Source: a virus | Lineage: Duplodnaviria > Caudoviricetes | Reading direction: 5' to 3' (one strand) | Length of the DNA: 64,000 nt | Virus record (IMG/VR): IMGVR_UViG_3300048024_000800 | Coordinates: 1-64,000 of that record | In this document: positions 1,781 through 25,395 of the stretch, one piece after another | Numbering within the stretch: position 1 is the stretch's first letter | Layout: every line of letters starts with the position of its first letter | Position numbers and translations under genes: made by a program | Notes under the pieces: generated by a model | The model's input: only the letters and a program-made list of their open reading frames with translations | Database searches by the model: none | What the model was told of the DNA's origin: nothing

Positions 1781-1789
1781 GTTTTTATA

Positions 1790-1794: not shown

Positions 1795-1804
1795 AGTTTT
1801 TAAT

Positions 1805-2641: not shown

Positions 2642-2643
2642 TG

Positions 2644-3507: not shown

Positions 3508-3524
3508 GGCGAGTCTTTTATTTA

Positions 3525-3549
3525 TACACTTAATTAATAAAAAGGTGTA
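3525..3549. promoter_or_regulatory. Back-to-back putative late promoters TACAC-N15-GTGTA
   Basis: GTGTA on minus at 3529-3525 (ATG 3507) and on plus at 3545-3549 (ATG 3559, 14 nt). Confidence 0.65.
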
Positions 3550-3558
3550 ATCAGTTTA

Positions 3559-4686
3559 ATGGCTAAACCTTCTCCTACTAGAATCACATACGAAAGGCTT
3601 GGAATTATGGTATCTGATTCTCCCGCTTATAAAGAGGCGGGTTCTGTTTTCAAAAACTTGATAAGAGTTCAGGATGTTGATTATGATTTTTCGCACCCAG
3701 CTTTAGATTTAAAGTCTGTTGGTTTTGATAATTTAATCGTTAAAGACGAAGAGTCTCCTGTTGTCAGGCAGGGTGATGTTCGGTGTAATATTTCATATCT
3801 TTTTTCTAGCGGACAAAACGAAGAAGCTATCGGTTTTAATTTGAGCCCTAGCGAAACAATTTTAAAAAATTTTATAGATGCTCCTGGCCACAACGATAGT
3901 AATATAGTTATTGTCGCCGCAAACGAGGTTGACTCTATAGATTTAAACAATATAAAAGATCAAGATTCTTTTGAAGGGTATAATGTAATAGGTTTAGGTA
4001 ACTCTTTTTTGATCGATTATAACTATGAAGCTTCTGTTGGGCAGTTGCCTTCTGCTTCAGTTACTTATGACTGCGGAAACATGAAATTCGATATTTATGA
4101 GCATAGTGACCCTCCCTCTTTTCCTTCTTTAAAGCTAGGCTCTGATAATAAATTTTCAGAAGAAAAAATTAATATAACTTCTGAAACGTTTTCTCCACAA
4201 GTATCTGCAGACTGCAATGCAATTATGCCTGGAGATATTTTGATAGAAATAACTAAAAAAGCTGGAGATTACGGAGGCGTACCTTTGGAAAAAGTAAACG
4301 CAGCAATACAAAGCGTATCTATCGATGTTCCAATTCCTCGGCAAAATATTTTTGGATTTGGTAGCAATTATGTTTTTGATAGAAAATTAAAACTTCCAAT
4401 TATAGGATCGTGTGCTATAGAAATGATTGTTCGGGAGTTTGATGAAGGTCAGATAGACTCTTTTTTTACAAAAGGTTCTGTATACGACATCAAAATCAAG
4501 CATACTGATAGAGATTTAAATGACGGCAGAGTTGAAGTTTCTTCTGTGATTAATACATTTTTAATAGAGGGAGCGCAATTAAAACAGCAGGCATACAGGG
4601 CTGGAATTGGTGGCCAAATGACTGTTGGAACTTTTTTTACTTTTGGAATAGGTAGAAAAAAGGGGTTAAAGTTATATAGACAATAA
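3559..4686 (+). CDS. Tail tube-like protein (paralog of 4737..6731)
   Basis: Collinear motifs shared with 4737..6731: RVQ..Y.F, I.LGN.F...Y..EA.VG..P.A.VT, PGDI, IQS.SIDVP..R, GS.Y...R, GA.L. Confidence 0.65.
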   Translation: MAKPSPTRITYERLGIMVSDSPAYKEAGSVFKNLIRVQDVDYDFSHPALDLKSVGFDNLIVKDEESPVVRQGDVRCNISYLFSSGQNEEAIGFNLSPSETILKNFIDAPGHNDSNIVIVAANEVDSIDLNNIKDQDSFEGYNVIGLGNSFLIDYNYEASVGQLPSASVTYDCGNMKFDIYEHSDPPSFPSLKLGSDNKFSEEKINITSETFSPQVSADCNAIMPGDILIEITKKAGDYGGVPLEKVNAAIQSVSIDVPIPRQNIFGFGSNYVFDRKLKLPIIGSCAIEMIVREFDEGQIDSFFTKGSVYDIKIKHTDRDLNDGRVEVSSVINTFLIEGAQLKQQAYRAGIGGQMTVGTFFTFGIGRKKGLKLYRQ

Positions 4687-4714
4687 AAAACCCGCCGAAT
4701 AAAGGCGGGTTTTT
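4685..4714. terminator. Bidirectional rho-independent terminator
   Basis: AAAAAA-CCCGCC-gaataaa-GGCGGG-TTTTT between convergent genes. Confidence 0.9.
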
Positions 4715-4736
4715 ATTAAAGATAATTAATAGTATC

Positions 4737-6731: not shown

Positions 6732-6766
6732 AATATTGTTTGTATAAAAGTTAGTTCTGTGTTAGT

Positions 6767-6771
6767 TACAT
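6767..6771 (-). promoter_or_regulatory. Variant late promoter motif (ATGTA) upstream of the tail tube gene
   Basis: ATGTAACT in the intergenic gap, 40 nt upstream of ATG 6731; one mismatch to GTGTA. Confidence 0.4.
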
Positions 6772-6797
6772 TTTTTTGTATATAAAGGGAAATTTTT

Positions 6798-7643
6798 CTA
6801 TCGAGGAAATCTTAGGCTAGTTACTTCGAAGTCTATAAAGCCTACAAATAAAGATGGATCTATATTTTTGCTAACCCTGTCACTTAGCTTGGAAACTCTT
6901 GATTCTTCAACGTGAAATAATGGATATCTTTTTGAATTTATAAATTGTTTATAATTGAAGTTTATAACATCTCCATATTCATTGAATGGATAATCTTCGA
7001 AATTTAATTTTGCAAATACTTCATTTTTTGCATCTGCGAAAACAGATAATGCTCCGTCTAATTGGTATGTGTTTTCTGCAAACACTACGCATCTAATGTT
7101 TGTTGTTGTTTTATCTTCACCTCCAAATGCATAAGGTTCGTTTTCTGAAAGCTCAGGGTTTACAAAAATAGCAGGAACAACTTGTTTGTATGGAGCTATG
7201 CCTGATATATCTTGCTTGAATCTTCCATTTACATCAAATTTACTGTCAACAATTAATTGCTCTTCTGTTTGATTTGTTATATAAAAATTGAAATCTTTTA
7301 CTGCATAAGATCCGCTGACTGCTGTGTTCGACGATCCAAAAGACGAATCAAATATTGCGCGCCCATTGTCAAAATCAAACTGCAAACCTTCGTCTCCTCG
7401 GTTCATAAAGGTTCCGTTATCAAATACCCCACTTGGAATGCTTGCGCCTTCGATGCTTGAATCATAAACCCATTGTTTGTGTGGGCTGCTATAACTTACG
7501 AGTCCGTTTCCGAGCCTGTCATCTGAATCGTTTGAATAAAAAGTTGATGTGTGATTAGTAAATGCTTCTGCTTTATTTGTTATAAAGTTGTCCGCCCAAA
7601 GCATAAAGCTTGTTGTTAATTCATGTTGAAATTGTGGTTTCAT
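6798..7643 (-). CDS. Putative tail terminator/neck protein
   Basis: Lies between neck and tube genes; C-terminal PAIFV...EPYAFGG...IRCVVFA...GFIDFEV pattern resembles tail-completion proteins. Confidence 0.5.
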   Translation of the reverse strand: MKPQFQHELTTSFMLWADNFITNKAEAFTNHTSTFYSNDSDDRLGNGLVSYSSPHKQWVYDSSIEGASIPSGVFDNGTFMNRGDEGLQFDFDNGRAIFDSSFGSSNTAVSGSYAVKDFNFYITNQTEEQLIVDSKFDVNGRFKQDISGIAPYKQVVPAIFVNPELSENEPYAFGGEDKTTTNIRCVVFAENTYQLDGALSVFADAKNEVFAKLNFEDYPFNEYGDVINFNYKQFINSKRYPLFHVEESRVSKLSDRVSKNIDPSLFVGFIDFEVTSLRFPR

Positions 7644-8266
7644 TAAAAATAAGATTTTGATACTCTTGATGCTTGAATTGAATTTAAATCTTTTTCAAAA
7701 TTATTTAATAAAGACTTTATATAAGAAGTTTTTACTCTTCCTCCTCCTGATACTTTACTGTTTTGAATTCCTGTTCCTGATCTTCCTTTTGAGGATCTTT
7801 TGAAAATGTATTGTCCTAAGTTTGGTATTCCTCCACCTTCCATTTCTCTGAGCCAACTTAATCCTTTTGCCCACGGCATCGGGGTCGCCTTGTATAAATC
7901 ATTTAAAGAAGGCGCGGTTATTATATAAGTCCAAATTAAACCTTTTGTTCCTATCGATCTTCTTTTGAGTATAATTTCTGTTTTTTGAAGCAATGATTCG
8001 ACGGTTGATAGTGGATCGGTCTCTACATTAAATCCAATAAAACTAAAAAGATTGCCGCGAGGAGTCAATCCTGAGGAACTTGATGCGTTTGGGCCGCTTT
8101 TTAATTCTCGAGTAACAGGATGAGATTCAAAATCTTTCATCATTTTATTGTGCAGAACTTTAAATTCTTTTTGTATCAAGTTTCTTGTTTTGAGCATCAG
8201 CTCATTGTCTCTCTGCAATTGTTTTACAATAGAAGTTTTTATTGATCTATCTAATCGCGCAGACAT
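7643..8266 (-). CDS. Putative neck/tail-completion protein
   Basis: Basic 207-aa protein translationally coupled (TAATG) within the head-tail cluster. Confidence 0.45.
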   Translation of the reverse strand: MSARLDRSIKTSIVKQLQRDNELMLKTRNLIQKEFKVLHNKMMKDFESHPVTRELKSGPNASSSSGLTPRGNLFSFIGFNVETDPLSTVESLLQKTEIILKRRSIGTKGLIWTYIITAPSLNDLYKATPMPWAKGLSWLREMEGGGIPNLGQYIFKRSSKGRSGTGIQNSKVSGGGRVKTSYIKSLLNNFEKDLNSIQASRVSKSYF

Positions 8267-8727
8267 TATACTTCTGTTGGCCTTAGGAACAAGGTGTAAA
8301 ATTGAACTTTGTCAAAAAGTCCGTGAGCTCTGGGGTCAGACTCAACATGGAACATTCTTCCGTCAAGCTCTATTCTTTTTGCGTCTTTTATATATTGGTA
8401 GTCTTCTATTTTTAATTTAATTCTTACCATGCTATTCGCATCAGGCTTTGACACTTTAACTTGTGCATCTGTATCTCCGAAGTATTCTAAGCTTCTATCT
8501 GTGTCGTACCTTATTCTCGCTTTAAATACTTTTTTTACGGGAACATTTTCCACGCTATTTGTTTGAGCTCCAGCTGTATTATATAAATAGTTGTAATTTG
8601 GGTCTGTACTAATGATGACTTTTTGAGCCTCTTTATATACAATAATATCTCTTCCAAATGTATCGTGAAGGTTTAATAAATTTGCCGCAATGTCTGCTCT
8701 GTCTGAAGGTGATAAGAATTCTACCAT
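8266..8727 (-). CDS. Putative head-closure (stopper) protein; start reassigned to ATG 8727 (MVEFLSP...)
   Basis: In-frame ATG 14 nt downstream of GTGTA; avoids overlap with the divergent gene at 8785; RIELDGRMFHV..PR.HG...Y.LFL resembles head-closure proteins. Confidence 0.55.
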   Translation of the reverse strand: MVEFLSPSDRADIAANLLNLHDTFGRDIIVYKEAQKVIISTDPNYNYLYNTAGAQTNSVENVPVKKVFKARIRYDTDRSLEYFGDTDAQVKVSKPDANSMVRIKLKIEDYQYIKDAKRIELDGRMFHVESDPRAHGLFDKVQFYTLFLRPTEV

Positions 8728-8736
8728 GAATAACTT

Positions 8737-8761
8737 TACACTAAACAATATTTTTTGTGTA
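8737..8761. promoter_or_regulatory. Back-to-back putative late promoters TACAC-N15-GTGTA
   Basis: GTGTA on minus at 8741-8737 (ATG 8727, 14 nt) and on plus at 8757-8761 (leader AGGTATAAGG, ATG 8785). Confidence 0.65.
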
Positions 8762-8784
8762 TATCGTTTTAGGTATAAGGTTTT

Positions 8785-9072
8785 ATGGACGCAGAAGGTA
8801 TTTTTAAAAAATCCTGTCAAAGGAATACGGTTTCCCTTTTTAAGGGTTTCCTCGTTATGCTTGAAGACTTGCATAATGAGCATCAGATTCATTTTAATAA
8901 ATTAAAATACAATCTTCCTGAGGGCTGTTCCCCTATTATTGATCAGGCAAACTATTTTGATGATGATAAACTTCAATACTTAAGAAAAAGAACTTTAGAT
9001 ATTGGTAATGAAACAATTAGAAATATCGAAGGCGAATTAGATAATTATACTATAGGCTTTACATTTAAATAA
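8785..9072 (+). CDS. Hypothetical phage protein
   Basis: 95-aa ORF with AAGG SD-like leader, first gene of the tail chaperone/tape measure unit. Confidence 0.7.
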   Translation: MDAEGIFKKSCQRNTVSLFKGFLVMLEDLHNEHQIHFNKLKYNLPEGCSPIIDQANYFDDDKLQYLRKRTLDIGNETIRNIEGELDNYTIGFTFK

Positions 9073-9079
9073 TAATATT

Positions 9080-9898
9080 ATGGCAGAATCAACATTAGAA
9101 AAAGATCAAACAATGGACGATACGCGCAAAAAGTTGCGTGAAATTTACAGCTTCACTTTTGAGAAAGAAGAAAAAGCAAAAAAAACTGAAACGAAAAAAG
9201 TAACCAATCCTGAGAGTGGAGAGGAAGAGGAAATTTCTGTCACTAAGGAAGTTGTAGATAAGATTCCATATAGGGTCATAATGAAGCAGCCTAACAGAAG
9301 GCAAATCGAAGAAGCCGAGCTAGAGTTTAGTGTTGAAATGAGCAACTGTATTAAGAGAGGCATTTTGACCAAAGCTATGCTCGCAAAAAAATACAGTGAC
9401 ACGGGCGGCCTTCTTGCGGAAGAAGATGCGAAAGCTCTCACCAAAATGTATATTCGTTACGGAGAACTTTCCCAAGAAAGCGAAAAGAAACAAATCAAAA
9501 ACCTTAAGACAGATGAGGATAAAAAGCGGCTCGAAGAGATCGCTGGAGAAATCGCTACATTAAGAAAAGATATCATTAATGTCGAAACATCTTATTCTAA
9601 TTTATTTAATCATACTGCCGACGTTCGAGCAGAAAATAAAGTTATTCAATGGTATATTCTTCATTTAACGTTTATACAAAAAGATGATTCTGATGATTCA
9701 ACTCCTCTATTTGAGGGAAATGATTTTGATCAAAAGCTTCAAACTTATTATGAGCTAGAAGAAAATGGAGATGAGCTTTACGACTTGGTTGGTGGAAAAA
9801 TCGCAGCCCTATACAGCTTTTGGTATTATAGTTCTGGCGCGGTATCTACGGCCGATTTTGAAAAGTTAGACAACGATATCGAAGAGGGTAACATTTAG
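9080..9898 (+). CDS. Putative tail assembly chaperone
   Basis: Acidic, coiled-coil-rich; lies upstream of the tape measure gene. Confidence 0.5.
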   Translation: MAESTLEKDQTMDDTRKKLREIYSFTFEKEEKAKKTETKKVTNPESGEEEEISVTKEVVDKIPYRVIMKQPNRRQIEEAELEFSVEMSNCIKRGILTKAMLAKKYSDTGGLLAEEDAKALTKMYIRYGELSQESEKKQIKNLKTDEDKKRLEEIAGEIATLRKDIINVETSYSNLFNHTADVRAENKVIQWYILHLTFIQKDDSDDSTPLFEGNDFDQKLQTYYELEENGDELYDLVGGKIAALYSFWYYSSGAVSTADFEKLDNDIEEGNI

Positions 9899-9903
9899 TA
9901 TGC

Positions 9904-10890
9904 GTGGAAACTGTCAAGCGCAGAAAAATATTTAGAGATATAGTTCGAGGTTTCTCTGCTACAATCTTTAAGGATGATTATGTTTACATAAAACACTTGA
10001 CTCCTCATGATCAAGTAGAACTTGAGGAGATAGAGGAAAAATATTTTAATATAGCTTTAAGAAAAGGAGTTCCCACAGAAGAGGATATGCTCGCCTACCT
10101 TAAGCAAGAGGGCGAATGGTCTGAAGATGACGATAAGTTTATTGTTGACAAACAAATATTTGTAGAAAATTTAAAAAAAGCACAGTCTAAAATAATTCTT
10201 AAATCAGATGTTGATCGACAATCCAAGTTGATCGAGAAAGAAGAAAGTTTATTGCGGCAAAAGCAATTCGAGAAAATTTCTTTGATCGGAAACACTTGCG
10301 AAAAATATGCAAAAGATAGATTAAATGATTTTTATATGATTAAAAGTTTTTTCTCTGATGTTGATATGAGGAAGCCTTTATTTAGTCAAGATAAATTTGA
10401 TGAGCTTGATAATCATGATATAAAAGTTGTTATAAATAGATACAATGAAATATTCGAAAGCTTTAATGAAGAAAATATACAATATACTATACTAGAAGAT
10501 TTTTATAATCCATATTTAAGTTTTGCTGAAGATAGTATGCAATTTTATGGCAAAGCATTTTGTGACTTAACATATAATCAAATAAGATTAATTGTATATA
10601 CTAGAGTATTTAAAAATATATTTGACTCAAATGAAAATATTCCTGAAAATATAAGAAAAGATCCTGCGAAATTGCTAGAGTTTGGAAGCAGCTCTAGGGA
10701 GGAGCGGGACAAAGCTAAGGATAAACTTTCGCAGGGAGATGGAGGCACTATAGTTGGGGCAAAGGACGAAGATTATGAGTATCTTGGAGTCGAAAAGCCA
10801 AAGAATACAATAAATCTTCATGAAGAAGCAAAAAAGAAGGGCGGCACTTTAAATATGGAAGATTTAATGAAATTACATGGCGTAGGATAA
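9904..10890 (+). CDS. Putative tail assembly chaperone (second)
   Basis: Immediately precedes the tape measure gene; helical; GTG start. Confidence 0.5.
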   Translation: METVKRRKIFRDIVRGFSATIFKDDYVYIKHLTPHDQVELEEIEEKYFNIALRKGVPTEEDMLAYLKQEGEWSEDDDKFIVDKQIFVENLKKAQSKIILKSDVDRQSKLIEKEESLLRQKQFEKISLIGNTCEKYAKDRLNDFYMIKSFFSDVDMRKPLFSQDKFDELDNHDIKVVINRYNEIFESFNEENIQYTILEDFYNPYLSFAEDSMQFYGKAFCDLTYNQIRLIVYTRVFKNIFDSNENIPENIRKDPAKLLEFGSSSREERDKAKDKLSQGDGGTIVGAKDEDYEYLGVEKPKNTINLHEEAKKKGGTLNMEDLMKLHGVG

Positions 10891-10929: not shown

Positions 10930-13900
10930 ATGTCTATAAATTTAAATGTAAACGGTAATACGGCCCCGCTGGAGGCAGCTGTTCAGGCGGCTGTAAACAG
11001 AATTCGCAAGACTCCAATCAAGGTAACTGTTGACGATAAGGGCGCTACTCAGCCCTTGGGCAATATGAAGCGGGGCGCTGATGAGTTTAGCAAATCGATG
11101 GAAGCTGCGAACGCTCGTATTATAGCTTTTGGAGCAAGTATGGCGATTATAAATGGAATTTCTGACGCATTCAAAGCTATGGTCACCAATGTCGTTCAGG
11201 TAGAAAAAGCTTTGGCAGATATTAATGTTGTGATGGGTTTAAGTTTGGCTAACTTGGATAAGTTTTCAGACTCTTTATTTAAGGTGGCGAAGGAAACTGC
11301 TGCAAGTTTTGATGTAGCTGCTGCAGCAGCCACGGAATATGCACGTCAAGGTTTAGCTGTTGAGGAAACCTTGAAAAGAACCAAGGACGCTTTAATCTTG
11401 ACTCGATTAACAGGCATGGACTCTGCAAATGCAGTTAAAGCTTTAACTGCCGCGATGAATACATACGGAGATCAAATAAAAGATACTACTCAATTGGTTA
11501 GTAAGTTTGCCGCAGTAGACGTTAAGTTTGCGGTTAGCGCGGAAGACTTTGCTGATGCAATATCTCGTACTGGTCAGGCTGCAAAAAGTGCTGGAGTAGA
11601 TATTGATGAGTTGGTGGGTCTGGTTACTGCAGCGCAGCAGCAAACTGCTAGAGGTGGTAAAGTAATCGGAAACTCGTTTAAAACAATTTTCACGAGAATA
11701 GGAAGAACTGATACATTAAATCAATTAGAAAACTTGGGCATTGCTGTTCGAGATGTCGAAGGAAATACAATCGGCGCAAAAAGAATTTTGACTGATCTTG
11801 CAAATACGTTTGACTCTTTGACCGAGTCGCAAAAAGCTCAAATTGCACAAACAGTTGGTGGAGTTTTTCAAATCAATGTTCTTAAGGCTGTATTAAGTGA
11901 TGCCGCGAAACAAAACGGAATTCTTGCGAACGCAACACAAATTTCTGCAGGGGCTACGGATGAAGCTATACAAAAGAATGAACAACTAAGAAGCACAATG
12001 TCTGCAATGGCTAGCGAAACAGGTCTCGCGCTTAAAGAAGTTTCTGCTAAAATAGGGGAGCTCGCGATAGCTCCTGGAATGGAAAAGATTTTAAATATCG
12101 TTAAAGGTTTTGCGGAAGGAGCTTCTGATATGCTTGGAGATGGAGAGTCTTCTGGAAATAAATTTGCTACAGGTTTTTTAAAAGGACTCGGTAATATTAT
12201 TACTGGTCCGGGATTGGTTGTTATCGTTGCCGTGTTTGGCAAACTATTTTTGAAAGCGGCTCAGTATGCTCGAGAAAGTTTGGGCTCGTTGATTGGTGTT
12301 ACGAGTGAAGCTCAAAAACAAAAAGCTATACAAACTTCTTTGGTCACTTTATTTGGTCAGAACGCAGCTCTTAGCAAGGAAATGTTGCGCACCGATATCT
12401 CTCGAACAGAAAAGGAAAGAATAATTCTTGGATTGCTTAAAGCTCAGGTAGTGGAAGCTAATGCTTTAAACACTATCGCGAGAAGTTCTGCAGCTAATTT
12501 GTATCAAAAAGGTTACGGATCTAATCTTGCTCCCAGAGCAAAACCTCGCCGTACAAGCGCGCAAGGTTATATACCTAATTATGTAGACGCTGAGCGCCAG
12601 CAAGCCGCACAAGGTGGGTATGCTGCTGGAAGTATTCGCAGTATGAACATGCCTGGCGAAGGCTCGGTGATATACAACAGTGCAGAAAAAGTAAAGAATT
12701 TTAAAGGTATGAGTCAGCCCGCGATTATGCCTCCAAAGTCAAGTAAAGCTGGAGAAAATTATCAACAAGCATTTGGCAGTATACATGGATTTGATCCATA
12801 TGCTGCAGGAGGATATATACCGAATTTTGCGAAAAAAACCGCATCTAAAACTTCTGATATTCCACGAAATCTTAATTCTAAAAAACTGGGAGATCTGAAT
12901 AAAGATTCTTCTTTAATTTTATTAACCGCTGACTCTTCTGCTGATAGCGAGTCGAGGTTCTTTGTGGGAAAAGACCCTAAGGGTGGGACAAAAATTTTAA
13001 ACACTGCAGATCTAGCTTCAAAGAGGACTACGGGTTATTACCAAGTAGATGTTCCGTATTATTCTCTAGATAAAAACGACAAAAGTAGGAAAAGTAAAAT
13101 AGACTTACCCTCGATACAAAAGGCAATTACTGCTGCAGCATCAGGCAAAGCTCTTGATATAGCCAAGCAAATTGTCGGGGGAGAGAAGAATTTAAAACCT
13201 TTTAATAGAGAACAAATTAAAGAAACATTTAATAAAGGCGCTTTTAAGGGCGCCGCTGGTAGCGCATTCGAGAGTGCAATAGCTGCAGCCCTTGACTCTT
13301 ATTTGTTTCAAGATTATAAAGCAAGAACTGATACATCTGCTATAGATTTACCTTATGACCCTAAGGTGTTTCAGTATTTTGGAGCTCCTCCTGGTGCTGG
13401 GAAAATGGGGGCAGAGGTAAAAGCTGATCTAGCTAACAATTTGCAACAAGGTGCCGCCAATAAGTTTTATCAGGTTTTAGCGGGGGGTCGTGCGGCATGG
13501 CAATATAAGGATAAAAATTTTAAGGACCAAATGAGGGGGCCGGCTGAAGATGCAGGTTTGGAAAGAAGGGGGGGCGCTTATTTTAAGAAAGGTAGGGCTT
13601 ACGGTCATATTCCAAACTTCGCCGCAGCGCGACTAGCTCTCACGGGTGGATTGGTTGGAAAAAACAAATTTGGCAATATAGATCGCAGGCAGATGACAAG
13701 ACTAGTAAGATCTAATCCTTACTTCAACGGCTTGATGAATGAACATCTTACATGGGACAGTTTTCCGAAAAAAGATAAGCGTAAATTAAGCAGGTGGCTA
13801 CTCAAACAAGGGGTGTCTAACCGAGCCTTACAAGCGTATGGTCTTGCAAGCATGCATTCAAAATCGATCGGAGAGGGAATCTCAAACTTAGCTATGGCGA

Positions 13901-16900
13901 AAGGCTATATTCCTAACTTTGCTGACCCATTATCTGATGCGATAGGTAGGGAAAAAGAGGCTGGAGTTCCTGTTTCAAAAATAAGAATTGGCTCTCATTC
14001 AGCGCTAATGAATAAAAGCAATCCGATTGGTCTGGGCGTAACCAATACAGACGATGAACCAAATGGATTGCGAGATGTATTTGGAGCTGCTAATGGATAT
14101 GTGCCGAATTATTTTAATCCATGGGAGCGCTTAAAAAGTTCGGTAAAGAATAGCGATTTTGGAAAAAGCTGGGATAAGGCTACGGCGCAGCACACCAAAG
14201 AAATACAAAGATTAAACGCCAGAATCAAACAAAGAGAGCAAGCTTTAAGCAAGCATAATCAAGAGTTATCAGCACTCACTAAGGGGACTAGTGAGTATAA
14301 CGCAGTTCAGAGAAAAATAAGAGACACCACCAAAAATTTAAATAAAGCTACGCAAAAAAAGACTGCCCTCCTAAACTCTCCTGCGCCTGGCGTCGGGGGC
14401 AAGATGGGTAGATTTAGTCAAGGTCTCGGAAAAGCTTTTTCTGGAAATTCAGGCATGATGATGATGATGGGAGCTCCTATGGCGGCAGGGTTTCTTCAGC
14501 AAGGGGGGATGGGTGCACAGGGAGGAAATCAAAATATGTACGCTGCAGGTGGAGCCTTAAGCGGTGCCGCTTCCGGAGCTATGATGGCAAGCATGATAGC
14601 CCCAATGTTTGGACCTGGAGCTCCTTTAGTTATAGGTATTGGTGGACTAATTGGAGGACTTGAGGGCTTAGCGGCTGCAAATGAAGAAAATACAAAAGCA
14701 TTAAAAGAAGTCGAGAAAGAAAGAAGGCAGCAGGTTGTATCTTCTTTTGTAGGTGCAGATCCTAAGTTCATGCAAAAATTTTCCAAGAACATATTTAAAG
14801 ACCTGAGCCCAGAAGACAAATCAGTCATGAGAATGGCAGCGCCTGAGTTTACAGCCACTAAACCCCCCGATGTTAGCGAAAAAGACATATTTACGAGAAG
14901 CGCAGTTAACCCAATAGCTAAAATGAAAATTCCTTTTTTGTCTCCGCTGTTTTCTCCAAGCGACGAAGAAAGAGCGCAAGCTACGGAATATAGAGAACAG
15001 ATGGATGAACAAAAGCAATTTCAAAAATACCAAAAATACCAAGTTAGCAATATGAGAAAAGCTTTGGGGTCTATGGGGGATGAAGAATTTTTGTTGCCAA
15101 ATTATCAAAAAAATAAGCAAGGTAAAATACAAACAAAAGGGCAACCCGAGTTAAAAAAAGCTTCTGCATATCTAGAAAATTTAGAAAACATAGGGTTTTT
15201 TGAGGTAAAAGATACTGGTGACGTAGCGAGGGTTGAAGCTCTTCGGTCAAAGTTATACGAAATCTACCAAAGCAATCTAACCCAGCAAGAAAAAGCCTTA
15301 ATTCTTCAATTAAACTTTCAGCGAGTGATGTTAAAATCCCAAAAAGCTGCCGCGGATACTCAATTAGATATAAAAAGTAAATATCTAAAACAATCTAATT
15401 TATTAGATTCTCAAGAAAAGATTCTCGGTGGTTTGATAAGCGAAGAGCAAAAAGTTAGAATTCAATACAATAAAAATTTAACAAAAGCTTCTGAGGCGTA
15501 TGCTAGTGGAGCTGCCAAGGCGGAATCTGATTTTTCTATGGGCCTGCTTCAAGATATTCAGGGACAAGGTAGGGATAGCCTTAGATCTGCAATAAAGCAA
15601 GAGTTGTTTAATCGGATGACCAACGAAGAACAGCGTGGAAAGGGAACCGCAGAGAGTATTTCAAATGTCGAACTCTCTGGAGAATTAGCCGCAATGTCAT
15701 CTAAGGAAAAAGAAGAATTTTTAACGAGCTTAAAAAATAAAAATAAGGGGCTCGATAACGAAATTAATGAAATACTAGGCAATAGACAATTAATATATGA
15801 TAACCAAATAAACACCCTAGAAAAACAAAAAACTCTTTCTGATGGTCAGAGCCTGTCTCAAAAAAATCTCAATGAAAAAATTGCTAAACAAAAAGACCTA
15901 ATGGTTGATGTTAACAGGGAGATGCAAGCTTACATCCGTGGGTTAGATAATGCTGCTCAATCCAGGGTAATAGCTTCTGAAATTACCGCTGCTAGATTTG
16001 GAGCTAGACCTCAAACACAAGAAGCAACTTTTGCGGAGCAACAAAGATTGGTCAAGGAAAGACAGCAAGGTATTCGCGAATCATATACAAAAAGCGCAGT
16101 TTCAGAAATGCAAAAACTGGCAACTGATAAAGGTTTAACTAAGGAGCAAAGATTGGAAATTGCTGCTGACCCATCAAAATTAAAAGGTATGTCTTCAGCG
16201 GCTATTGACTCTATGGAGAAAAGCTTTAAATCAAGAGGAGGGTCGAGGAAAACTACAATGCTAGATCAATTAATAAAAAATAGCCCTACTGACACGGAAG
16301 ACCAAAAAAAATTAAAAATTTCAAGAAAACAGGAATTGGATGAATTAAAAACCCTTGAACAATCAATTACTGACGCAAAAGCTCAAACATCCAAACAAGA
16401 AGACGATATTATTGCCAAGCTTGAAGAGCAAAAAAATAAAGTTGAAGAAAGAATATCAAAAGAAAAAATATTGCAAGAAATAAGAGAAAAAGAATACACC
16501 CGAAGAACTGGCCCAGGTGCTTTCGGAGAGGGCGTTAAGGATGCTGGGATAGATATGGAAAAGCGGGTCGCTATGATGGACTACGAGCTTGGAACAAGGC
16601 TTCCTCAAACATTTGCTAATGGTTTGTCTGGAGCGTTCATTGAGGCGATCAATGGAGCCAAGGACTTGGACGACGCGCTCAGAGACGCTGGCTTGAATTT
16701 CTTGAAGATGATTCAAGAAGCCATGATGCAAAAAATGGTCATGCAAATGATGGGAGGCTTGGGATTTTCGCAAGGAGGTAATGTCCGCAATTACTCGAAG
16801 GGCGGAAATGTTCCCGCAAGAGTTTCGAATGGAGAATATTTAATGAGTCGAGAGGCTGTAAATAAATACGGCGGATCATTTATGCATGGATTGAACGCCC

Positions 16901-17946
16901 GAGGAAAAGCTCCTGGATTTTCTTCTGGAGGAAGAACTATTCAGCCAGGATCCGCACTGGCTGCTAATTTTGGCGGAGCCGAAGGTTATAAATCCGGAAA
17001 AAGGTACCAATCTCAAGCAATGTCTTCATTTTTTTATAGCGGACAATCCGGCAATCCTGGACTGCGGGAGGACACCGACGAAATGAGTAAAATATTGGCA
17101 GAAAGAGAGCAAGCAAGGTTGAGAGCTGAGGCTGAGGCAAAAGCAAAAAAACAAGAAAAAAGAGCCATGTGGGGCATGCTTGCCGGAATTGTCGCGACCT
17201 CAGCGGCGAGCTCATTAATGGATCATTTCTCTAGTTCAAACTTAACTGCAGACGCAAAGGCTGATGGTTATACTGTAGACACTCCTTCTGGGGTTAGGTC
17301 TGCCACAAAAGATGGTTACCAATACAGTCTTCTGCCTGGCGCTAGCGACAAAGGATTTGATAATGTTTCTAAAACCAGAAGCTGGAACCCTTTTAGCTGG
17401 GGAGGTTCTGGAGCTGGAGCCAGCATAAATGAAAGGCAATTTCAATTTAATGATTTTCAGGCTTCTCCGAATTATGGCGTTCCCCCCGACCCGTTCGGCT
17501 ATAAGGACCCTAGGCTTGCGTATTTTGGTGGAAAAATAGGTAACTACGCAAATGGCGGACCTATTTCTGGGAAATCTGGAATCGATCAAATTCCTGCGAT
17601 GCTTAGCGAGGGCGAGTATGTCGTTAAAGCTAGTAGTGCGAGACAGATTGGTAGGCCAATGCTTGACCAAATAAATGCAGGAAAGTTTTATGATGGAGGG
17701 CAAGTATCTACTTTAAGCCAGAACTCGGAATCTTCCGTATCTGAGGGTAATACAAATAATATAAATATTTCCGTAAATATAGAAAATGGAACAGTAAAAG
17801 AATCTAATGAAAACTCAAAGGATCAGGATTCGAAAAATCAGGATTCTAGTAGTGAGTCTAAGATCGCCCAAAAAATTAAACAACAAGTAGTTGCTGTAAT
17901 AATAGAAGAACAAAGGATTGGGGGTCTTTTAAACAAGTCTAAATGA
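10930..17946 (+). CDS. Tail tape measure protein (TP901-type core) with internal repeated motifs and cargo-like domains
   Basis: 2338 aa, Ala/Gly-rich; TP901-like core (EYARQG, FAVSAED...AISRTG, G.VIGNSFKTIFTRI, LENLGIAV); C-terminal IPAMLSEGEYVV motif. Confidence 0.92.
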   Translation: MSINLNVNGNTAPLEAAVQAAVNRIRKTPIKVTVDDKGATQPLGNMKRGADEFSKSMEAANARIIAFGASMAIINGISDAFKAMVTNVVQVEKALADINVVMGLSLANLDKFSDSLFKVAKETAASFDVAAAAATEYARQGLAVEETLKRTKDALILTRLTGMDSANAVKALTAAMNTYGDQIKDTTQLVSKFAAVDVKFAVSAEDFADAISRTGQAAKSAGVDIDELVGLVTAAQQQTARGGKVIGNSFKTIFTRIGRTDTLNQLENLGIAVRDVEGNTIGAKRILTDLANTFDSLTESQKAQIAQTVGGVFQINVLKAVLSDAAKQNGILANATQISAGATDEAIQKNEQLRSTMSAMASETGLALKEVSAKIGELAIAPGMEKILNIVKGFAEGASDMLGDGESSGNKFATGFLKGLGNIITGPGLVVIVAVFGKLFLKAAQYARESLGSLIGVTSEAQKQKAIQTSLVTLFGQNAALSKEMLRTDISRTEKERIILGLLKAQVVEANALNTIARSSAANLYQKGYGSNLAPRAKPRRTSAQGYIPNYVDAERQQAAQGGYAAGSIRSMNMPGEGSVIYNSAEKVKNFKGMSQPAIMPPKSSKAGENYQQAFGSIHGFDPYAAGGYIPNFAKKTASKTSDIPRNLNSKKLGDLNKDSSLILLTADSSADSESRFFVGKDPKGGTKILNTADLASKRTTGYYQVDVPYYSLDKNDKSRKSKIDLPSIQKAITAAASGKALDIAKQIVGGEKNLKPFNREQIKETFNKGAFKGAAGSAFESAIAAALDSYLFQDYKARTDTSAIDLPYDPKVFQYFGAPPGAGKMGAEVKADLANNLQQGAANKFYQVLAGGRAAWQYKDKNFKDQMRGPAEDAGLERRGGAYFKKGRAYGHIPNFAAARLALTGGLVGKNKFGNIDRRQMTRLVRSNPYFNGLMNEHLTWDSFPKKDKRKLSRWLLKQGVSNRALQAYGLASMHSKSIGEGISNLAMAKGYIPNFADPLSDAIGREKEAGVPVSKIRIGSHSALMNKSNPIGLGVTNTDDEPNGLRDVFGAANGYVPNYFNPWERLKSSVKNSDFGKSWDKATAQHTKEIQRLNARIKQREQALSKHNQELSALTKGTSEYNAVQRKIRDTTKNLNKATQKKTALLNSPAPGVGGKMGRFSQGLGKAFSGNSGMMMMMGAPMAAGFLQQGGMGAQGGNQNMYAAGGALSGAASGAMMASMIAPMFGPGAPLVIGIGGLIGGLEGLAAANEENTKALKEVEKERRQQVVSSFVGADPKFMQKFSKNIFKDLSPEDKSVMRMAAPEFTATKPPDVSEKDIFTRSAVNPIAKMKIPFLSPLFSPSDEERAQATEYREQMDEQKQFQKYQKYQVSNMRKALGSMGDEEFLLPNYQKNKQGKIQTKGQPELKKASAYLENLENIGFFEVKDTGDVARVEALRSKLYEIYQSNLTQQEKALILQLNFQRVMLKSQKAAADTQLDIKSKYLKQSNLLDSQEKILGGLISEEQKVRIQYNKNLTKASEAYASGAAKAESDFSMGLLQDIQGQGRDSLRSAIKQELFNRMTNEEQRGKGTAESISNVELSGELAAMSSKEKEEFLTSLKNKNKGLDNEINEILGNRQLIYDNQINTLEKQKTLSDGQSLSQKNLNEKIAKQKDLMVDVNREMQAYIRGLDNAAQSRVIASEITAARFGARPQTQEATFAEQQRLVKERQQGIRESYTKSAVSEMQKLATDKGLTKEQRLEIAADPSKLKGMSSAAIDSMEKSFKSRGGSRKTTMLDQLIKNSPTDTEDQKKLKISRKQELDELKTLEQSITDAKAQTSKQEDDIIAKLEEQKNKVEERISKEKILQEIREKEYTRRTGPGAFGEGVKDAGIDMEKRVAMMDYELGTRLPQTFANGLSGAFIEAINGAKDLDDALRDAGLNFLKMIQEAMMQKMVMQMMGGLGFSQGGNVRNYSKGGNVPARVSNGEYLMSREAVNKYGGSFMHGLNARGKAPGFSSGGRTIQPGSALAANFGGAEGYKSGKRYQSQAMSSFFYSGQSGNPGLREDTDEMSKILAEREQARLRAEAEAKAKKQEKRAMWGMLAGIVATSAASSLMDHFSSSNLTADAKADGYTVDTPSGVRSATKDGYQYSLLPGASDKGFDNVSKTRSWNPFSWGGSGAGASINERQFQFNDFQASPNYGVPPDPFGYKDPRLAYFGGKIGNYANGGPISGKSGIDQIPAMLSEGEYVVKASSARQIGRPMLDQINAGKFYDGGQVSTLSQNSESSVSEGNTNNINISVNIENGTVKESNENSKDQDSKNQDSSSESKIAQKIKQQVVAVIIEEQRIGGLLNKSK

Positions 17947-19073
17947 GTTTCTCTAATTACCAACAAACCGTAATAATAAACGGAATATCTTTATCTGGGG
18001 TTCAAGATGTTAACGGAAGTTATGGAATCAATGAAAAGCCTGTTCGTGTTGCAGGGGCTGGATTTGTTGACGCTTTAATAGATTCTCCGCTAGAAGGAAA
18101 CTTTTCGATTTCAAGAAAAATGGTAAGCCGGGACCCTCTTCTCTCTTCCAATGTTATTGGCTCCTACGATTTTGATGAAGAAGAAATTAGCGGGGCTATA
18201 CTTTATGATGAAGCTAGCAAGGGGTTCGGGTTTACTAAAGGTAGGGTTTCCAGGTATTCTGTTTCTTGTTCTGTTGGAGATATTCCGTCTATCGAGACCG
18301 ATATTATTGTGTTTGGGTCGTTGGGAAAAAATGTTCTATCTGAAACTCGTTTCGAAATTAATGAGTCTTTTGCAAATTATCCATTTGGGGGCGATGATGT
18401 CTATTTCTTGGATTCTAATGGAAATCTTCTTGATGGTTCAAATTCAGAGAATTTAAAAACTAAATGGGATGGCGGATCTTTAGTCGTCAGTCAAAGTGAT
18501 TATAATTCTCTACCTTCTAACTCTCGCATATTCGACGATGGTGATGTTTTGGGTTTGGGCAGAAACGCATTCTCTTCGCAAGTTTCCTATGAGGGAGCTA
18601 TAAACAAAGAGCATCCACCAATACAATTTTGCGATCAATCTAGTATTAAGGTCAGTGTTAGTGATTTTGAAATAGATGCTGTCAGTGATTTTAGTTTTAG
18701 CAGGACAATAAACTTATCACCGATTTATGCAATACATCAAGGAAACGACCAAGAGTGGGATGAGGGCAAACTTAGTTTTCCTAACCTAGAGCCTGTTCAG
18801 ATAGATACTCAATATCCGATTGAGACAGATATAAATTTCACGATGATCGTTCAGTCTTATCAAATAAGAGAAATTAGGGAAAGAATACAGTCTGCCCCAA
18901 AAAGCGATGTATCTATTCAAATAAGGGATTCAAAGACCGATCAAATAATCAACTCTCTGGTCGGAAGAAACGTAAGACTTACAAGTGAATCTCTCACTTC
19001 GAATACAGAGCAGGAGATGTCCATATCTTTAACCTATAAAGGTTATGAAACCTCTCACAATCCCGTAATATGA
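17943..19073 (+). CDS. Tail tube-like/distal tail protein with an inserted domain
   Basis: Follows the tape measure gene; VSRYSVSCSVGDIPS echoes the tube motif YSIEAAVGGMPT. Confidence 0.55.
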   Translation: MSFSNYQQTVIINGISLSGVQDVNGSYGINEKPVRVAGAGFVDALIDSPLEGNFSISRKMVSRDPLLSSNVIGSYDFDEEEISGAILYDEASKGFGFTKGRVSRYSVSCSVGDIPSIETDIIVFGSLGKNVLSETRFEINESFANYPFGGDDVYFLDSNGNLLDGSNSENLKTKWDGGSLVVSQSDYNSLPSNSRIFDDGDVLGLGRNAFSSQVSYEGAINKEHPPIQFCDQSSIKVSVSDFEIDAVSDFSFSRTINLSPIYAIHQGNDQEWDEGKLSFPNLEPVQIDTQYPIETDINFTMIVQSYQIREIRERIQSAPKSDVSIQIRDSKTDQIINSLVGRNVRLTSESLTSNTEQEMSISLTYKGYETSHNPVI

Positions 19074-19987
19074 GTAATCCGTTTTTAAGGTTCGAAGATG
19101 GAAAAATTTCCTTAGGAGGTAAAGACTTATTGGTTTCATCTGCGAACCTTTCTATTTCTCCATCTTTTCAGGTAGAGAGGGTTTACGGGGATTATGATCC
19201 CGACCTGGTTGGAGCTAAGACAGAATTTATTAATTTCGCCCCAATGACCGGACTTAATGGAAAATTGGATATTTCGTTTTACATCTCCGCCGAATCTTTT
19301 AATCGAGAAGGAGGTATTAATTCTATCGAAAGACTGTTTGAAATAAAAGGCGGAATGTCTGAGGATCCTATACATTCAAATGTTGTTGGTAGATATTCTT
19401 TCGACAATATGTATTTAACTTCTTTTAGTTTTGAGCTTCAACCTTTTAAAATTGTTAAGGCTAGCGCTTCGTATATTATATATGGTTCAATCAGAAAGAA
19501 TCCTAGCCGAAGATTTGTTCAGTTGGGAGCTAATTTTGCTCATGGGTTAAAATCTTTCGGGCAAATAAAAATTGGAGGCGCTGCAGTTAACCCTTCTTCC
19601 TCTGAGAAGTTTGAAATTAATAGTTTGAATTATAAAATAATCGTGGATAGAAAGCTACATACTAAGATAAGAGAATCTGAAAATACGAGTATTAATACTT
19701 TTCCCGACGGGGTCTTGCCTTATAGAGTTTCAGTTGAAAGCATCGAGTCTGAAATGAATGTGCAATGTAATGATATTGTCTCAAGCTTGAATTCTTACGG
19801 AGATCAGCAGCTGGGGAGCTCTCCCGAAGGGCTGCAAGATTCTGAAATTTGCGCCTTTTTGTACTCTGCAAAAGGGGAGAGGGTCGCTAAATTTTCCTCA
19901 AGGGGTAAGATTCAGTCAGAGTCTATTTCTATAACTGAAGGATCAAACGCTTCTTGCAATATATATATTAAGGAAATTATAAAGTAA
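19070..19987 (+). CDS. Tail tube-like/distal tail protein
   Basis: Coupled ATGA overlap; beta-rich (YLTSFSFELQPF..V.ASASY). Confidence 0.5.
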   Translation: MSNPFLRFEDGKISLGGKDLLVSSANLSISPSFQVERVYGDYDPDLVGAKTEFINFAPMTGLNGKLDISFYISAESFNREGGINSIERLFEIKGGMSEDPIHSNVVGRYSFDNMYLTSFSFELQPFKIVKASASYIIYGSIRKNPSRRFVQLGANFAHGLKSFGQIKIGGAAVNPSSSEKFEINSLNYKIIVDRKLHTKIRESENTSINTFPDGVLPYRVSVESIESEMNVQCNDIVSSLNSYGDQQLGSSPEGLQDSEICAFLYSAKGERVAKFSSRGKIQSESISITEGSNASCNIYIKEIIK

Positions 19988-22900
19988 TGAGTAATAATCC
20001 TGAAGATGGAAATTATTTTCTAGCTAACATATCTAATTATAGCGGGGTTTTTGACCCTTCTCTTAGTTATAAAAAGTTTGATTTTGTTTATGATCAGAAT
20101 GACGGGCTTTATTATTACGCAAAAAAAGATATTTCTTTTGGTGGTAATGTTCAAGTTTCGGGTGATTATAGATTTGATTTAGTTCCAGATGGCCCCATAA
20201 TAGATAATAGAGAGTCGTATTACATTTATGATAAATGGAATCAATTAGGGTTGCTAAACCAAGGTTTTCGTGCTGGACAAGAAATAAGTATACAGGGTTC
20301 TATACAGGGTTCAAACGGGAACTTTGAGGTTTTAGAAGTCGAAGAGAGCGTGGACGCTTATTATAATTCAGAAGCTCAAAACACAATTATCTCTGCGTTA
20401 GATCTCACTGAACTTGCTGGAGGTTGGTACAGGTCTTCGTGGTTTTTTATTCCTAATAAGGGAGAAGTTTCTGAACTCGACAAGTCTCTTAACTATCTAA
20501 TAGAAGGTAGTAATTGGATTTATAATACACTACTCGGTTGGCTTTTTATTAATCTTGATAATTCTTACGGAAAAAACTTTTGGTTTTACATGCCACAATT
20601 TTCTAACTCTAGGAGTGAGGGTGACGGTGTTTGGTTATGGGCTGATATTCAAACTATCGGGTCTTCAATTGCAAACTCAAACTCTTTTATTTATCTAGGA
20701 CCTTCTAATCAAGTTAACGACTACTTGAGTTATGTGGTAAATTCTCCAGAGCTTAATGAATATTACTCTCTTGGTAAAAGTTGGGATTATCAGGATGGCC
20801 TGGGCTCTCTTCCGTCAGATAGAAAAAGTAAAGAGGAATTTGGACTAAGTCATTGGGTTTTTAACGGAGAAAAAGAAGGTTATTCTATGCCAACAAAACA
20901 GCTCATGGGTGCAGAAAGTTGGGTTTTTTGTTCCGAGTCTCACTCAGACTTATATTCTGTTTATTTTTATAATTACTCTGATAATACTTGGTTTGGCAAA
21001 TCAACGTCTTCTCTGGCTATCTCTCAAGTTTCGAGTTCTCAGGTTCAAATATCTCCAGAGTCTTCTGTTCCTTCGAGTTTTGTACCTAATAGGTTGACCG
21101 ATGGAGTATCTTCTAGGTTGATCGTTAGAGGTTCAAATGAGAATTCTAAGATTTCTACAATTGAGGAAGCTGGCGAAAATAATATTATTCTTACCTCTAT
21201 CAATAATTTGCCCAGTTCTAATCAAGATGCTTGGGCGTCCGACAGATTCTTTTTTGATGCAGATTATGGATCTACTGTAAATTTCAAAGCCAATGTGAGT
21301 AAAAATGAATTCGGCAATGGATATTATTCTGTTCAACCAAAAGGAATTAATTGTTTGGACTTTGAGGTTAATTTAGATTTTAGAAATAGGACTAATAGGG
21401 AGGCTAATGCAATCATTCATTTTTTAGAATCCCATCAAGGCCAACTAGAAAAAGATTCTTCCTCTTCTTTTTTGCAGTATAATCAGGGAATATCTGGATT
21501 CAATTGGGACGGCTCTTCCACCTTTCATCCATACGACTCCCTGGATAATCAGTCTAAAACTTTTTACTGTTCAGAGTTTTCTCATAGTTTAAATTTTGAG
21601 AATAGTAATGATGTCTCTGTTAAGTTGAGAAATTTTAATACTTCTATATTGAATAAGTCTGAATCATTGTTTATTAATAGAGCTGATGATTATAGCGAAA
21701 GCTCTTATTATTCTAAAAATGATGTGGTTTTTTATCCGGATAATCATCAGTATTATTATTTTCATAGCGGAAGCCAGCATCAGGAGGCTCTAGCTGGGCC
21801 TCCCGTTTTGATGCATGATGAGTGGACTAAACAAAGCGGGTATTGCTCAGAGATAAACAAAGAAGCGTGGACTAGGGAGTTTTTCTGGAAACCTTCTGTC
21901 GGGCTAACTGTGTCCCAGAACCCCAAGGTTTTAGAATTAAATTTGAACGATTCGTATTCGCAGATTTATGCAAACGGAATTAATGCTAATCTATTAAATT
22001 TAAATCTAAATTTTAATAATAGAGATGACGCAGAGTGTTATTCTATTCTTCATTTTTTGGAACAACATTACGGATCTGTACCTTTTATATTTTACCCTCC
22101 TGCTCCCTACGAAACAGAAAAGGCTTTTATATGTAGAGATTGGTCTCACGTTTATAATTTTAAAAATAATCATAGTATATCTGTTCTATTCGAGGAGTTT
22201 CCTTTAAAGCTATCGAGTGAGGATTTAATTAACCAAATATCTCCCGCAATAAAAACTAAAGGAGAAATAATTGCTCCTTCTTTTTTAGAGTTTTCTGAAG
22301 AGAATGAAGAGTTCTCTTGGGATTCCGTGTTAAAGAAAAGGTTTTATATAAAAAATGTTGGCGGAACTGATGTAGATATATCAAGCTTGCGCATTTCTTC
22401 AGAAAGATATTTTAGAATTTTAGGAAAAAGGTCCTTGGGCGAAACGTATTGCACTGAGGGGCTTGATAGAAAAAGTTTAGTTTTCGACGAGAGCTTTGTT
22501 ACAGCGCGATCTATATATTTAGATATTTTAGAGCAAGATGCTCCCGAGAGTTTTATTCAAATATATTCTGAAGATTTAAAATATTGGAGCGTTGGCGATT
22601 TTATTGGGGTGCTAATGAATGACGATTTATTTCTTTATTCCGCTCCTTCCGTTAAAAAAATAAAAATTTTATATAAAGATTTATTGGGTAGGGATGCAGA
22701 TTCGCAGGGCTTAGATTACTATATAAATGAGAGTGATAATTTAAGTATTGTTGAGTCAATAATGGATTCTAGTGAGTTTTGCGAAGCTTTTCTTTTGCCT
22801 AAAACTTCTGAGCGGCCAGGAACCGTGCTGCAAGTACCTTTGGATAAGCTATTAGATCTTAATCTTCAGGGTAGGACGATAAAACTTAAATCTTATGATG

Positions 22901-25389: not shown

Positions 25390-25395
25390 CATATT

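Follow-up and report, generated by a model that had tools for sequence, protein, structure and literature searches.

The window analysed here comprises the first 64 kb (positions 1 to 64,000) of the 74,951-base IMG/VR virus record IMGVR_UViG_3300048024_000800, which is rated as approximately 54% complete. We concentrated on one gene of its plus strand (positions 10930-17946), whose 2338-aa product (P0001) can be identified from its sequence as a tape measure protein (TMP) of the TP901/PF10145 type. This identification is based on the match of aa 121-311 to PF10145 (E 1.7e-27; 97 bits, in comparison with a Pfam cut-off of 33.2), on the matches of eleven PHROG tape-measure families to aa 20-470, and on the presence, 3' of the gene, of lambda-like tip genes (positions 19987-32080) encoding Phage_min_tail (M-like), Phage_tail_L and I/J-like proteins. 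Within this TMP, aa 546-1061 form an array of modules fenced by five copies of a short peptide, and the array is located between two hydrophobic segments (approximately aa 425-447 and aa 1217-1252). The search for cultured relatives revealed no DNA nearly identical to the window. The comparisons described below are based on a word-indexed search with aa 520-1100, which retrieved 427 proteins (120 of these were listed and compared), and on a scan of viral contigs, which supplied 33 loci for comparison at the DNA level.

The copies of the border peptide, all encoded on the plus strand, were localized by a pattern scan: GYIPNY (motif 1; aa 546, positions 12565-12582), GYIPNF (motif 2; aa 628, 12811-12828), GHIPNF (motif 3; aa 892, 13603-13620), GYIPNF (motif 4; aa 992, 13903-13920) and GYVPNY (motif 5; aa 1056, 14095-14112), where the coordinate of each motif is that of its Gly residue. 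An earlier sequence-only reading of this DNA had placed five G[YH][IV]PN[FY] motifs at exactly these nucleotides (12565, 12811, 13603, 13903 and 14095), quoting strings that begin two residues before the Gly. The chance expectation for this pattern in the TMP is 7e-5 (analytic value), and four of 20000 shuffled protein sequences contained at least one match. When all six frames of the 64-kb window were searched with a less stringent pattern, no copies besides the five were revealed. A degenerate DNA pattern had 23 matches in four virus records (75-140 kb), each of which fell inside the TMP gene (23/23), while the reversed pattern, which served as a control, gave none.

Every one of the 120 listed relatives carries the motif. 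Together with the query these make a close set of 121 proteins, in which four copies are present in 79 proteins, five in 36, three in four and six in two. A sequence logo of 540 instances showed that the full consensus has nine residues, A-x-G-[YHF]-[IV]-P-N-[FY]-A: Ala at position -2 (90%), Gly, then Tyr, His or Phe (42, 28 and 25%), Ile or Val (67 and 32%), Pro-Asn, Phe or Tyr (63 and 36%), and Ala at position +1 (78%). Since the Gly, Pro and Asn residues of the logo were fixed by the search pattern, near-misses were counted separately. In the close set, 520 full motifs were found versus two sites with a replaced Gly, one with a replaced Pro and one with a replaced Asn. The corresponding numbers for 134 further representatives were 444 versus five, three and nine, the Asn being exchanged for Ser, Ala or Gln at the nine sites of this wider set.

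The codons of the motif, examined in 141 copies (136 from the 33 loci and five from the window), include all four Gly, all four Pro and both Asn codons. As many as 105 distinct 27-mers were found among these copies, and the five copies of the window differ mutually at synonymous sites. Such free synonymous variation means that selection acts on the peptide and not on a DNA string. The idea, put forward in the sequence-only reading, that the motifs could be recombination joints finds no support where joints acting through their DNA sequence are concerned, even though blocks of DNA homology still end at them. The motif is a peptide-level signal, which is specific to the TMP and present at each module border. 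Four strings representing it were not found in any paper of the literature searched.

In the query, the motifs delimit four segments, A (76 aa), B (258 aa), C (94 aa) and E (58 aa), whose lengths bear out the range of approximately 60-260 aa given previously. Clustering of 419 inter-motif segments from the 121 proteins produced 14 segment clusters. The architecture A-B-E was found in 75 proteins and A-B-C-E, the type of the query, in 20. The other 26 proteins include the architectures A-B-fam4-E (five proteins), A-B-fam5-E (three) and A-B-fam4-C-E (two), three multi-cassette forms found in P0040, P0048 and P0098, and a few others. The optional cassettes are always located between B and E, and each of them adds one motif. 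Module C (aa 898-991, positions 13621-13902) is a cassette of this kind, present in 30 of the 121 proteins; it is 95% identical in P0040 and P0048, in which the N-terminal parts are only 47-50% identical.

The variation of the array includes wholesale replacement of a module. The proteins P0008-P0015 match the query at 99-100% identity in the N-terminal part and in modules A and C, and at 95% in E, while B shows 28% identity over 59-67% of its length, or no match at all. At least five types of B were found on backbones that are 99-100% identical. In each of nine swapped pairs (9/9), the protein identity is lost 0-1 residues past motif 2 and is regained at a point 0-2 residues short of motif 3. 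At the DNA level, 20 or more loci cease to be homologous at nt 1897-1914 of the TMP gene (motif 2 occupies nt 1882-1899), and homology restarts at nt 2971-2980 with most loci (motif 4 starts at nt 2974) and at nt 2679 with L008 (motif 3 starts at nt 2674). In most loci homology ends once more at nt 3183, which is the last base of motif 5; L002 and L003 are 97-98% identical up to this base and unrelated afterwards. This location of breakpoints at motif edges is partly built into the comparison, as homology must stop where variable sequence starts; the variable sequence itself always begins at a motif.

We have shown in this way that the motif-fenced modules of the TMP are exchangeable: B is replaced, and cassettes are gained or lost at a motif. 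The view that the motifs bound exchangeable segments is supported by segments that vary in presence (C) and type (B), and by the breakpoints at motif edges. Less accurate was the description of the segments as unrelated. Nowhere in the region is conservation stronger than in A and E, and the B segments form a single diversified family with a fixed Glu/Asp/Glu-x-Lys signature. Unrelated optional cassettes exist between B and E, as revealed by the clustering. A survey of phage protein mosaicism from 2023 (PMC10684548) states that genuine recent mosaicism in TMPs could not be confirmed. The swaps observed here are clear cases of recent mosaicism inside TMPs.

The array is widely distributed. Among 1.84 billion proteins, a motif-E-motif profile matched 1006 clusters (at 50% identity), of which 797 had E<=1e-10. 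Of 150 listed profile matches, 134 were new proteins, and these contain from 0 to 14 motif copies; the relatives with 13-14 copies have 4493 and 5354 aa. Among 15 long members that were scanned, 13 have PF10145 at the N-terminus, which identifies the motif-bearing family as a TMP family. Some arrays have an unusual layout. In P0154, aa 985-1170 form a tandem array of approximately ten motif copies, whose spacers (11-33 aa) resemble the start of module E; spacers shorter than 30 aa are rare (8/782). In P0037 (aa 911-926) a spacer of only 4 aa separates two motifs, as though the C cassette once present there had been lost by deletion. The distant relative L029 (record G002, locus 1-9552) has eight motifs over more than 3100 aa, and the start and the end of its E-like module are found at aa 1231 and aa 2066, respectively. 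With its ends approximately 800 aa apart, E appears to be split or partly duplicated in this protein.

The structure of the array was predicted with AlphaFold2 (AF2) for aa 520-1100 (a 581-aa fragment in which residue 1 is aa 520; 21 sequences), and the mean predicted local distance difference test score (pLDDT) was 54. Within the fragment, B was modelled as an alpha/beta domain (residues 134-338, pLDDT 60-84) and C as a helical one (residues 397-456, pLDDT 80-89), while the scores for E and A were approximately 55 and 30, respectively. The stretches with a pLDDT of <50 are residues 1-133, 339-396, 457-481 and 526-546. Because all five motifs fall in these stretches, between the modules (with a pLDDT of approximately 27-33 for motif 1 and 25 for motif 3), the model presents them as short linear elements in predicted disordered linkers and not as parts of a fold. 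In having consensus sites that recur in flexible linkers, with folded units on either side, the array resembles a viral polyprotein. Of the segments, which had been said not to resemble the helical core of the protein, B (alpha/beta) and C (a small helical domain) differ from the long-helix region in the AF2 model. Fold searches with the whole 581-aa model were uninformative, as the matches were dominated by one helical hairpin.

Module B (aa 634-891, positions 12829-13602) is a hypervariable domain, predicted to be of the alpha/beta type, whose identity drops from 100% to 28% and then to none on backbones that are 99-100% identical. The 116 segments found at the B position form 31 clusters at >=60% identity. 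In an alignment of 23 B modules the mean identity is 22%, and only Gly777, Glu781, Asp806 and Lys845 are invariant. A different alignment, of 21 rows, has an invariant Lys831 (in Glu829-x-Lys831), where position 829 was read by eye as Glu or Asp. The strict pattern G-x-x-hydrophobic-E ... hydrophobic-D-hydrophobic ... [ED]-x-K is present in 105 of the 116 segments, in comparison with four reversed and three shuffled control sequences, and the 11 misses are variant spellings of the same sites. In an AF2 model of B alone (pLDDT 75, predicted template modelling score 0.70) the signature residues are carried by a helix (H136-153), a bridge (at 174) and a strand (E194-198). The order of Glu ... Asp ... 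(Asp/Glu)-x-Lys on helix, strand and strand is that of the PD-(D/E)xK site.

The invariant residues, together with a pattern so rarely found in the controls, argue for B being one family, which changes rapidly around a fixed site apparently of the restriction-endonuclease kind. The same residue pattern suggests that B may be a restriction endonuclease-like enzyme diversifying under pressure from the host, a possibility that we advance tentatively and rate at somewhat below an even chance. Comparisons of the B model gave no fold match in the PDB (Foldseek, best E 0.1) or in BFVD (best E 0.05), and the best result of VIA over 48,161 chains (Z 4.5, rmsd 2.9, 45 aligned) involved helices only. A profile of the 23 B modules had no matches among PDB sequences at E<=10 and no usable match in the Atlas, and no Pfam family matched aa 520-1100 at E<=1.

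The modules flanking this variable part are of a different character. Module A (aa 552-627, positions 12583-12810) is 82-99% identical in most relatives and 49-66% identical in six distant ones, and it is predicted to be disordered (pLDDT approximately 26-33, AF2). In distant relatives, A contains extra [IV]PNF copies spaced 22-36 aa apart. Module E (aa 998-1055, positions 13921-14094) is 79-97% identical in most relatives and 50-75% in five distant ones, has 30 invariant columns (19 sequences), and had no match at E<=1 in 50,697 cultured-phage records. Homology of A and E was considered and rejected, as hhalign aligned just 17 columns, corresponding to the motif itself. Module C has no Pfam family, and an Atlas search with it returned unnamed clusters only (<=0.86). 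Nearly all cassettes are likewise without a Pfam family, the exceptions being a staphylococcal nuclease (SNase) domain in a cassette of P0098, and DUF7178 in P0152 and L029 (in the latter, in the cassette at aa 618-814). A word-based search for shorter proteins revealed, within its sensitivity, no free-standing B or C; its one match was a truncated TMP with a frameshift-like tail.

The array is followed by a variable "post" segment (aa 1062-1180, positions 14113-14469), which is predicted to be helical (in the AF2 model of P0002 a helix runs from residue 545 onward) and to which most relatives, even nearly identical ones, showed no match. Beyond it, the TMP is a patchwork of stretches sharing 30-100% identity with the relatives, which indicates that the protein is mosaic over its whole length. 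On the other side of the array, the conserved N-terminal part (aa 1-545, positions 10930-12564), which contains PF10145 and the first hydrophobic segment (hydropathy maximum 2.19), is matched by 113 of the 120 listed relatives. Over its first 520 aa, the full-length matches mostly show 78-100% identity, with 47-63% in three distant relatives. The matches of cultured phages to this side of the TMP are confined to the N-terminal 488 aa. The second hydrophobic segment belongs to a Gly/Met-rich region (aa 1181-1290, positions 14470-14799) with hydropathy windows at aa 1217-1252 and a Gly content of 18%, and two relatives, P0044 and P0081, have Gly-zipper Pfam matches at this position. The long middle region that follows (aa 1291-1930, positions 14800-16719) is helix-prone in composition and is presumed to be the ruler; its 640 aa show approximately 30% identity among relatives.

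The second series of motifs noted in the C-terminal part is real (FSQGG at aa 1946, YSKGG at aa 1955, FSSGG at aa 1997, YANGG at aa 2206 and FYDGG at aa 2253), and there is one more copy, FSWGG at aa 2155, which was absent from the earlier list. In the 121 members, [FYW]xxGG occurs 10.7 times per 1000 aa in the last 450 residues and 1.2 times elsewhere, and is therefore nine times denser in the C-terminal part. This series does not punctuate cassettes, as had been supposed, but belongs to a twice-repeated C-terminal unit that is also found in TMPs of cultured phages. The first copy (FSQGG, YSKGG ... GEYL) is encoded by positions 16765-16914 and the second (YANGG ... GEYV ... FYDGG; phrog_13338 at aa 2201-2253) by positions 17545-17703. 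The unit has approximately 60 aa with the core ...IPAMLSEGEYV..., and is found twice in 101 of the 121 proteins, once in 16 and not in four. Translated searches (tblastn) with aa 2191-2277 gave matches in 62 cultured-phage records, and 23 of the 25 rows listed lie under annotated TMP genes; the phages include those of Mycobacterium, Streptomyces, Burkholderia and Gordonia, among others. The unit with its [FY]xxGG series is an ordinary feature of TMPs and not a cassette border.

Upstream of the TMP gene are two genes for conserved acidic proteins, of 272 aa (positions 9080-9898) and, directly upstream, of 328 aa (positions 9904-10890), both on the plus strand. They are syntenic and, in the closer loci, 72-100% and 64-98% identical, respectively; the first is 39-47% identical in L030, L032 and L033, and the second 32-37% in three distant loci. 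Neither has a family match in Pfam or PHROG. They occupy what is presumably the usual position of the tail assembly chaperones. A frameshift of the G/GT type between the two open reading frames (ORFs) was ruled out, as the overlap of the second frame with the first ORF is only 7 nt. The plus-strand tail block begins at 9080, after a divergent gap (8892-9080), which means that the tube gene is not adjacent to the TMP gene.

Downstream of the TMP gene lies a gene for a 376-aa protein (17943-19073, plus strand), whose ends (aa 1-131 and 222-376) are conserved, while the middle is replaced or expanded in relatives: its two matching pieces are up to approximately 1.2 kb apart in L019 and approximately 0.5 kb apart in L002, L003, L004 and L006. 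By its sequence it looks like a distal tail-type protein with an insertion that can be swapped. Positions 19987-43673 (plus strand) encode three giant tail proteins (1800, 1714 and 3885 aa). An M-like domain (aa 631-737) and DUF4214 are found in the first, the second has an I-like N-terminus fused to a J-like core, and the third, located beyond the tip genes and followed by an S74-chaperone protein, is fibre-like and contains DUF285, CBM5/12 and Big_2 pieces. Sugar and envelope genes are located at 44594-52559 (minus strand; GT9-like and GT1-like glycosyltransferases, a WavE-like protein and a HAD hydrolase-nucleotidyl transferase fusion), and a further glycosyltransferase-like gene at 60801-61853 (plus strand). 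In the leftward block, a 278-aa protein (1805-2641, minus strand) has a weak match to an H-type lectin domain (E 6e-5; 23.5 bits versus a cut-off of 24).

The phage is an uncultured marine siphophage, and its host is probably a member of the marine Flavobacteriales. Two contigs of one Flavobacteriaceae metagenome-assembled genome (the only match of this kind) carry the TMP family, and the source names of some relatives refer to Bacteroidetes or Crocinitomicaceae; this is a weak hint at the host and not an assignment.

Overall, the best explanation of these results, although a tentative one to which we give a little less than an even chance, is that the modular array is cargo of the tail and that the border peptide is most likely a processing site. 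The array would travel in the tail together with the ruler and leave it at infection, and the border peptide would be a signal recognised, for every module, by the same partner. If this signal is a site of specific cleavage, the modules would be freed from the ruler and from one another, like the units of a viral polyprotein. Considered separately, site-specific processing is the single most likely function of the peptide, with a probability that we would nevertheless place somewhat under one half. It is suggested by the length and specificity of the site, by the flexible linkers and by the presence of one site per border, as in viral polyproteins, by the fact that TMPs are known to be cut (with pb2 of phage T5 as the precedent), and by polyvalent proteins, which have been proposed to be processed into units.

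A number of observations weigh against this interpretation. Pfam revealed no peptidase domain in the TMP or in 28 relatives, and no cognate protease was found among the ORFs of the window, which comes from a record approximately 54% complete; the enzyme may also be one of the host. As the motif occurs in no other gene of the four records searched, a dedicated protease or one of the host would be needed. A and E, which would be released as peptides of 58-76 aa, are better conserved than the rest of the region, an unexpected property for spacers, and the B model matches no nuclease and no known fold (Foldseek, VIA, BFVD). To judge from the established geometry of tails, three copies of B, if folded, would not fit side by side in the lumen. 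The array of P0154 and the short spacers suit multivalent binding or unequal crossing-over better than the release of cargo. Self-cleavage driven by Asn is disfavoured by the disordered context and by the nine sites of the wider set at which Ser, Ala or Gln replaces this residue, which means that such cleavage is not obligatory. Reading of the sequence also led us to reject a signal peptidase-like A-x-G site, since most copies are without a preceding hydrophobic stretch.

Nearly as likely as cleavage, if doubtful in itself, is docking without any cut, in which the motif, A and E would bind one conserved partner, possibly the two acidic upstream proteins or the wall of the tube. Non-helical cargo would in this manner be kept unfolded and in register during assembly, and every cassette would need its own copy of the motif. 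Short docking motifs are often aromatic and hydrophobic, as this one is. Module A is 82-99% identical and yet predicted to be disordered, as would be expected of a region that folds on a partner, and docking would also suit the extra [IV]PNF copies in A of distant relatives, the approximately ten tandem copies in P0154, the confinement of the motif to the TMP, and the synteny of the two upstream ORFs with their 64-100% identity in the closer loci. However, the partner is hypothetical, and docking leaves unexplained why A and E, as two conserved clamps, should not be enough when cassettes are added. A complex prediction for the two upstream proteins with motif 1-A-motif 2 (score 0.01) counts neither way. 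The motif might instead be a passive boundary, a linker cap or insulator whose function would depend little on its sequence, found at every border because only border-joined recombinants survive and cassettes carry one flanking copy. The partly built-in breakpoints would be in keeping with this, and both the tandem arrays and the 4-aa "empty" spacer of P0037 look like products of unequal or illegitimate recombination. We nevertheless consider a passive role improbable, as the 520 and 444 full motifs (in 121 and 134 proteins) with few near-misses, maintained next to unrelated cassettes and despite free synonymous change, show conservation far beyond the needs of a passive linker.

A role confined to DNA can be given the least weight. 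If the 18-27 nt of the motif were a crossover site of a phage recombinase, and this the sole cause of its conservation, one could understand why homology stops at nt 3183 even in relatives 97-98% identical up to there, and why copies occur in tandem in P0154. The freedom of third codon positions, the 105 distinct 27-mers among 141 copies and the synonymous differences between the copies of the window nevertheless make this explanation very unlikely. It is also conceivable, although with little probability, that the array is not injected but acts inside the virion, with B holding or protecting the leading end of the DNA in the head-proximal part of the tail. The signature of B is that of a DNA-binding or DNA-cutting site, and the array lies in the N-terminal half of the TMP, the half that is head-proximal in the tails studied (lambda, T5). 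Host-directed functions are a better match for the hypervariability of B on nearly identical backbones and for the SNase cassette of P0098.

It is known that TMPs contain, now and then, a domain that degrades the cell wall, and that they can undergo a single cut. In mycobacteriophages, Rpf-like and peptidase motifs are embedded in the TMPs of only some relatives, so that small host-directed enzyme segments are inserted in a TMP, as may also be the case here. Their targets are polymers of the cell wall, whereas the signature of B is nuclease-like, and we know of no shared peptide fencing these segments. The internal proteins of T4 provide a second parallel, as a conserved capsid-targeting and cleavage sequence is attached to variable cargo, and a short conserved peptide gives fast-changing proteins access to the virion. 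They are, however, encoded by separate small genes, packaged in the head and cut by the prohead protease, while the modules described here are joined in one tail protein.

Published data on other systems allow a closer comparison. In the pb2 TMP of T5, a cut made after R1127 during tail assembly separates a hydrophobic stretch from a peptidase domain, and the tail retains the two parts (Linares et al. 2023, PMC10038345); among the references of that paper is a title of 1973 on the involvement of the host in the cleavage of T5 tail protein. Like pb2, the TMP analysed here may carry an enzyme domain, but according to this source pb2 has one cut and one fixed C-terminal peptidase domain, in contrast to 3-14 copies of a fixed nine-residue peptide and exchangeable modules in the N-terminal half, where cutting is proposed. 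Polyvalent proteins of phages and conjugative elements, in which several effector domains are strung together and for which processing into units after delivery has been proposed (Iyer et al. 2017, PMC5512222), are also giant, virion-associated and multi-domain. As described there, they are head or ejection proteins with known domains and a metallopeptidase domain as the proposed processing enzyme, and the words "tape measure" do not occur in the text of PMC5512222. The protein described here has PF10145 as its only known domain and a repeated border peptide, and a processing metallopeptidase domain was not detected by Pfam in P0001 or the 28 relatives. The Sle1-type TMP-related effectors of actinobacterial contractile injection systems (Nagakubo et al. 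2026, PMC13277306) share with it a tape measure-like scaffold in a tail-like particle and an exchangeable functional domain that differs between relatives. In that case there is one C-terminal domain, the system is contractile and belongs to Actinobacteria, and the abstract mentions no repeated border motif. No paper on an ejected tape measure protein with a nuclease domain was found in the literature searched.

To conclude, the array extends known kinds of proteins, namely TMPs with embedded domains and polyprotein-like virion proteins, and it is a widespread feature. A bolder proposal, which we regard as unlikely, is that the nine-residue peptide is a universal tag by which modules of nearly any kind are written into the TMP, loaded into the tail lumen and released into the host ahead of the DNA, with B, always present and quick to change, as a first-strike nuclease-like enzyme in an arms race against defences of the host, in at least 1006 clusters from siphophages of marine Bacteroidota. 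If true, the use of the ruler as a re-writable carrier for 1 to 12 modules, by means of a border peptide, would be a new design principle of phage tails. The motif would also be a sequence handle with which hundreds of uncharacterised injected proteins could be harvested from metagenomes and, should the peptide prove to be a cleavage or loading tag, it might become a tool for loading chosen proteins into phage tails.

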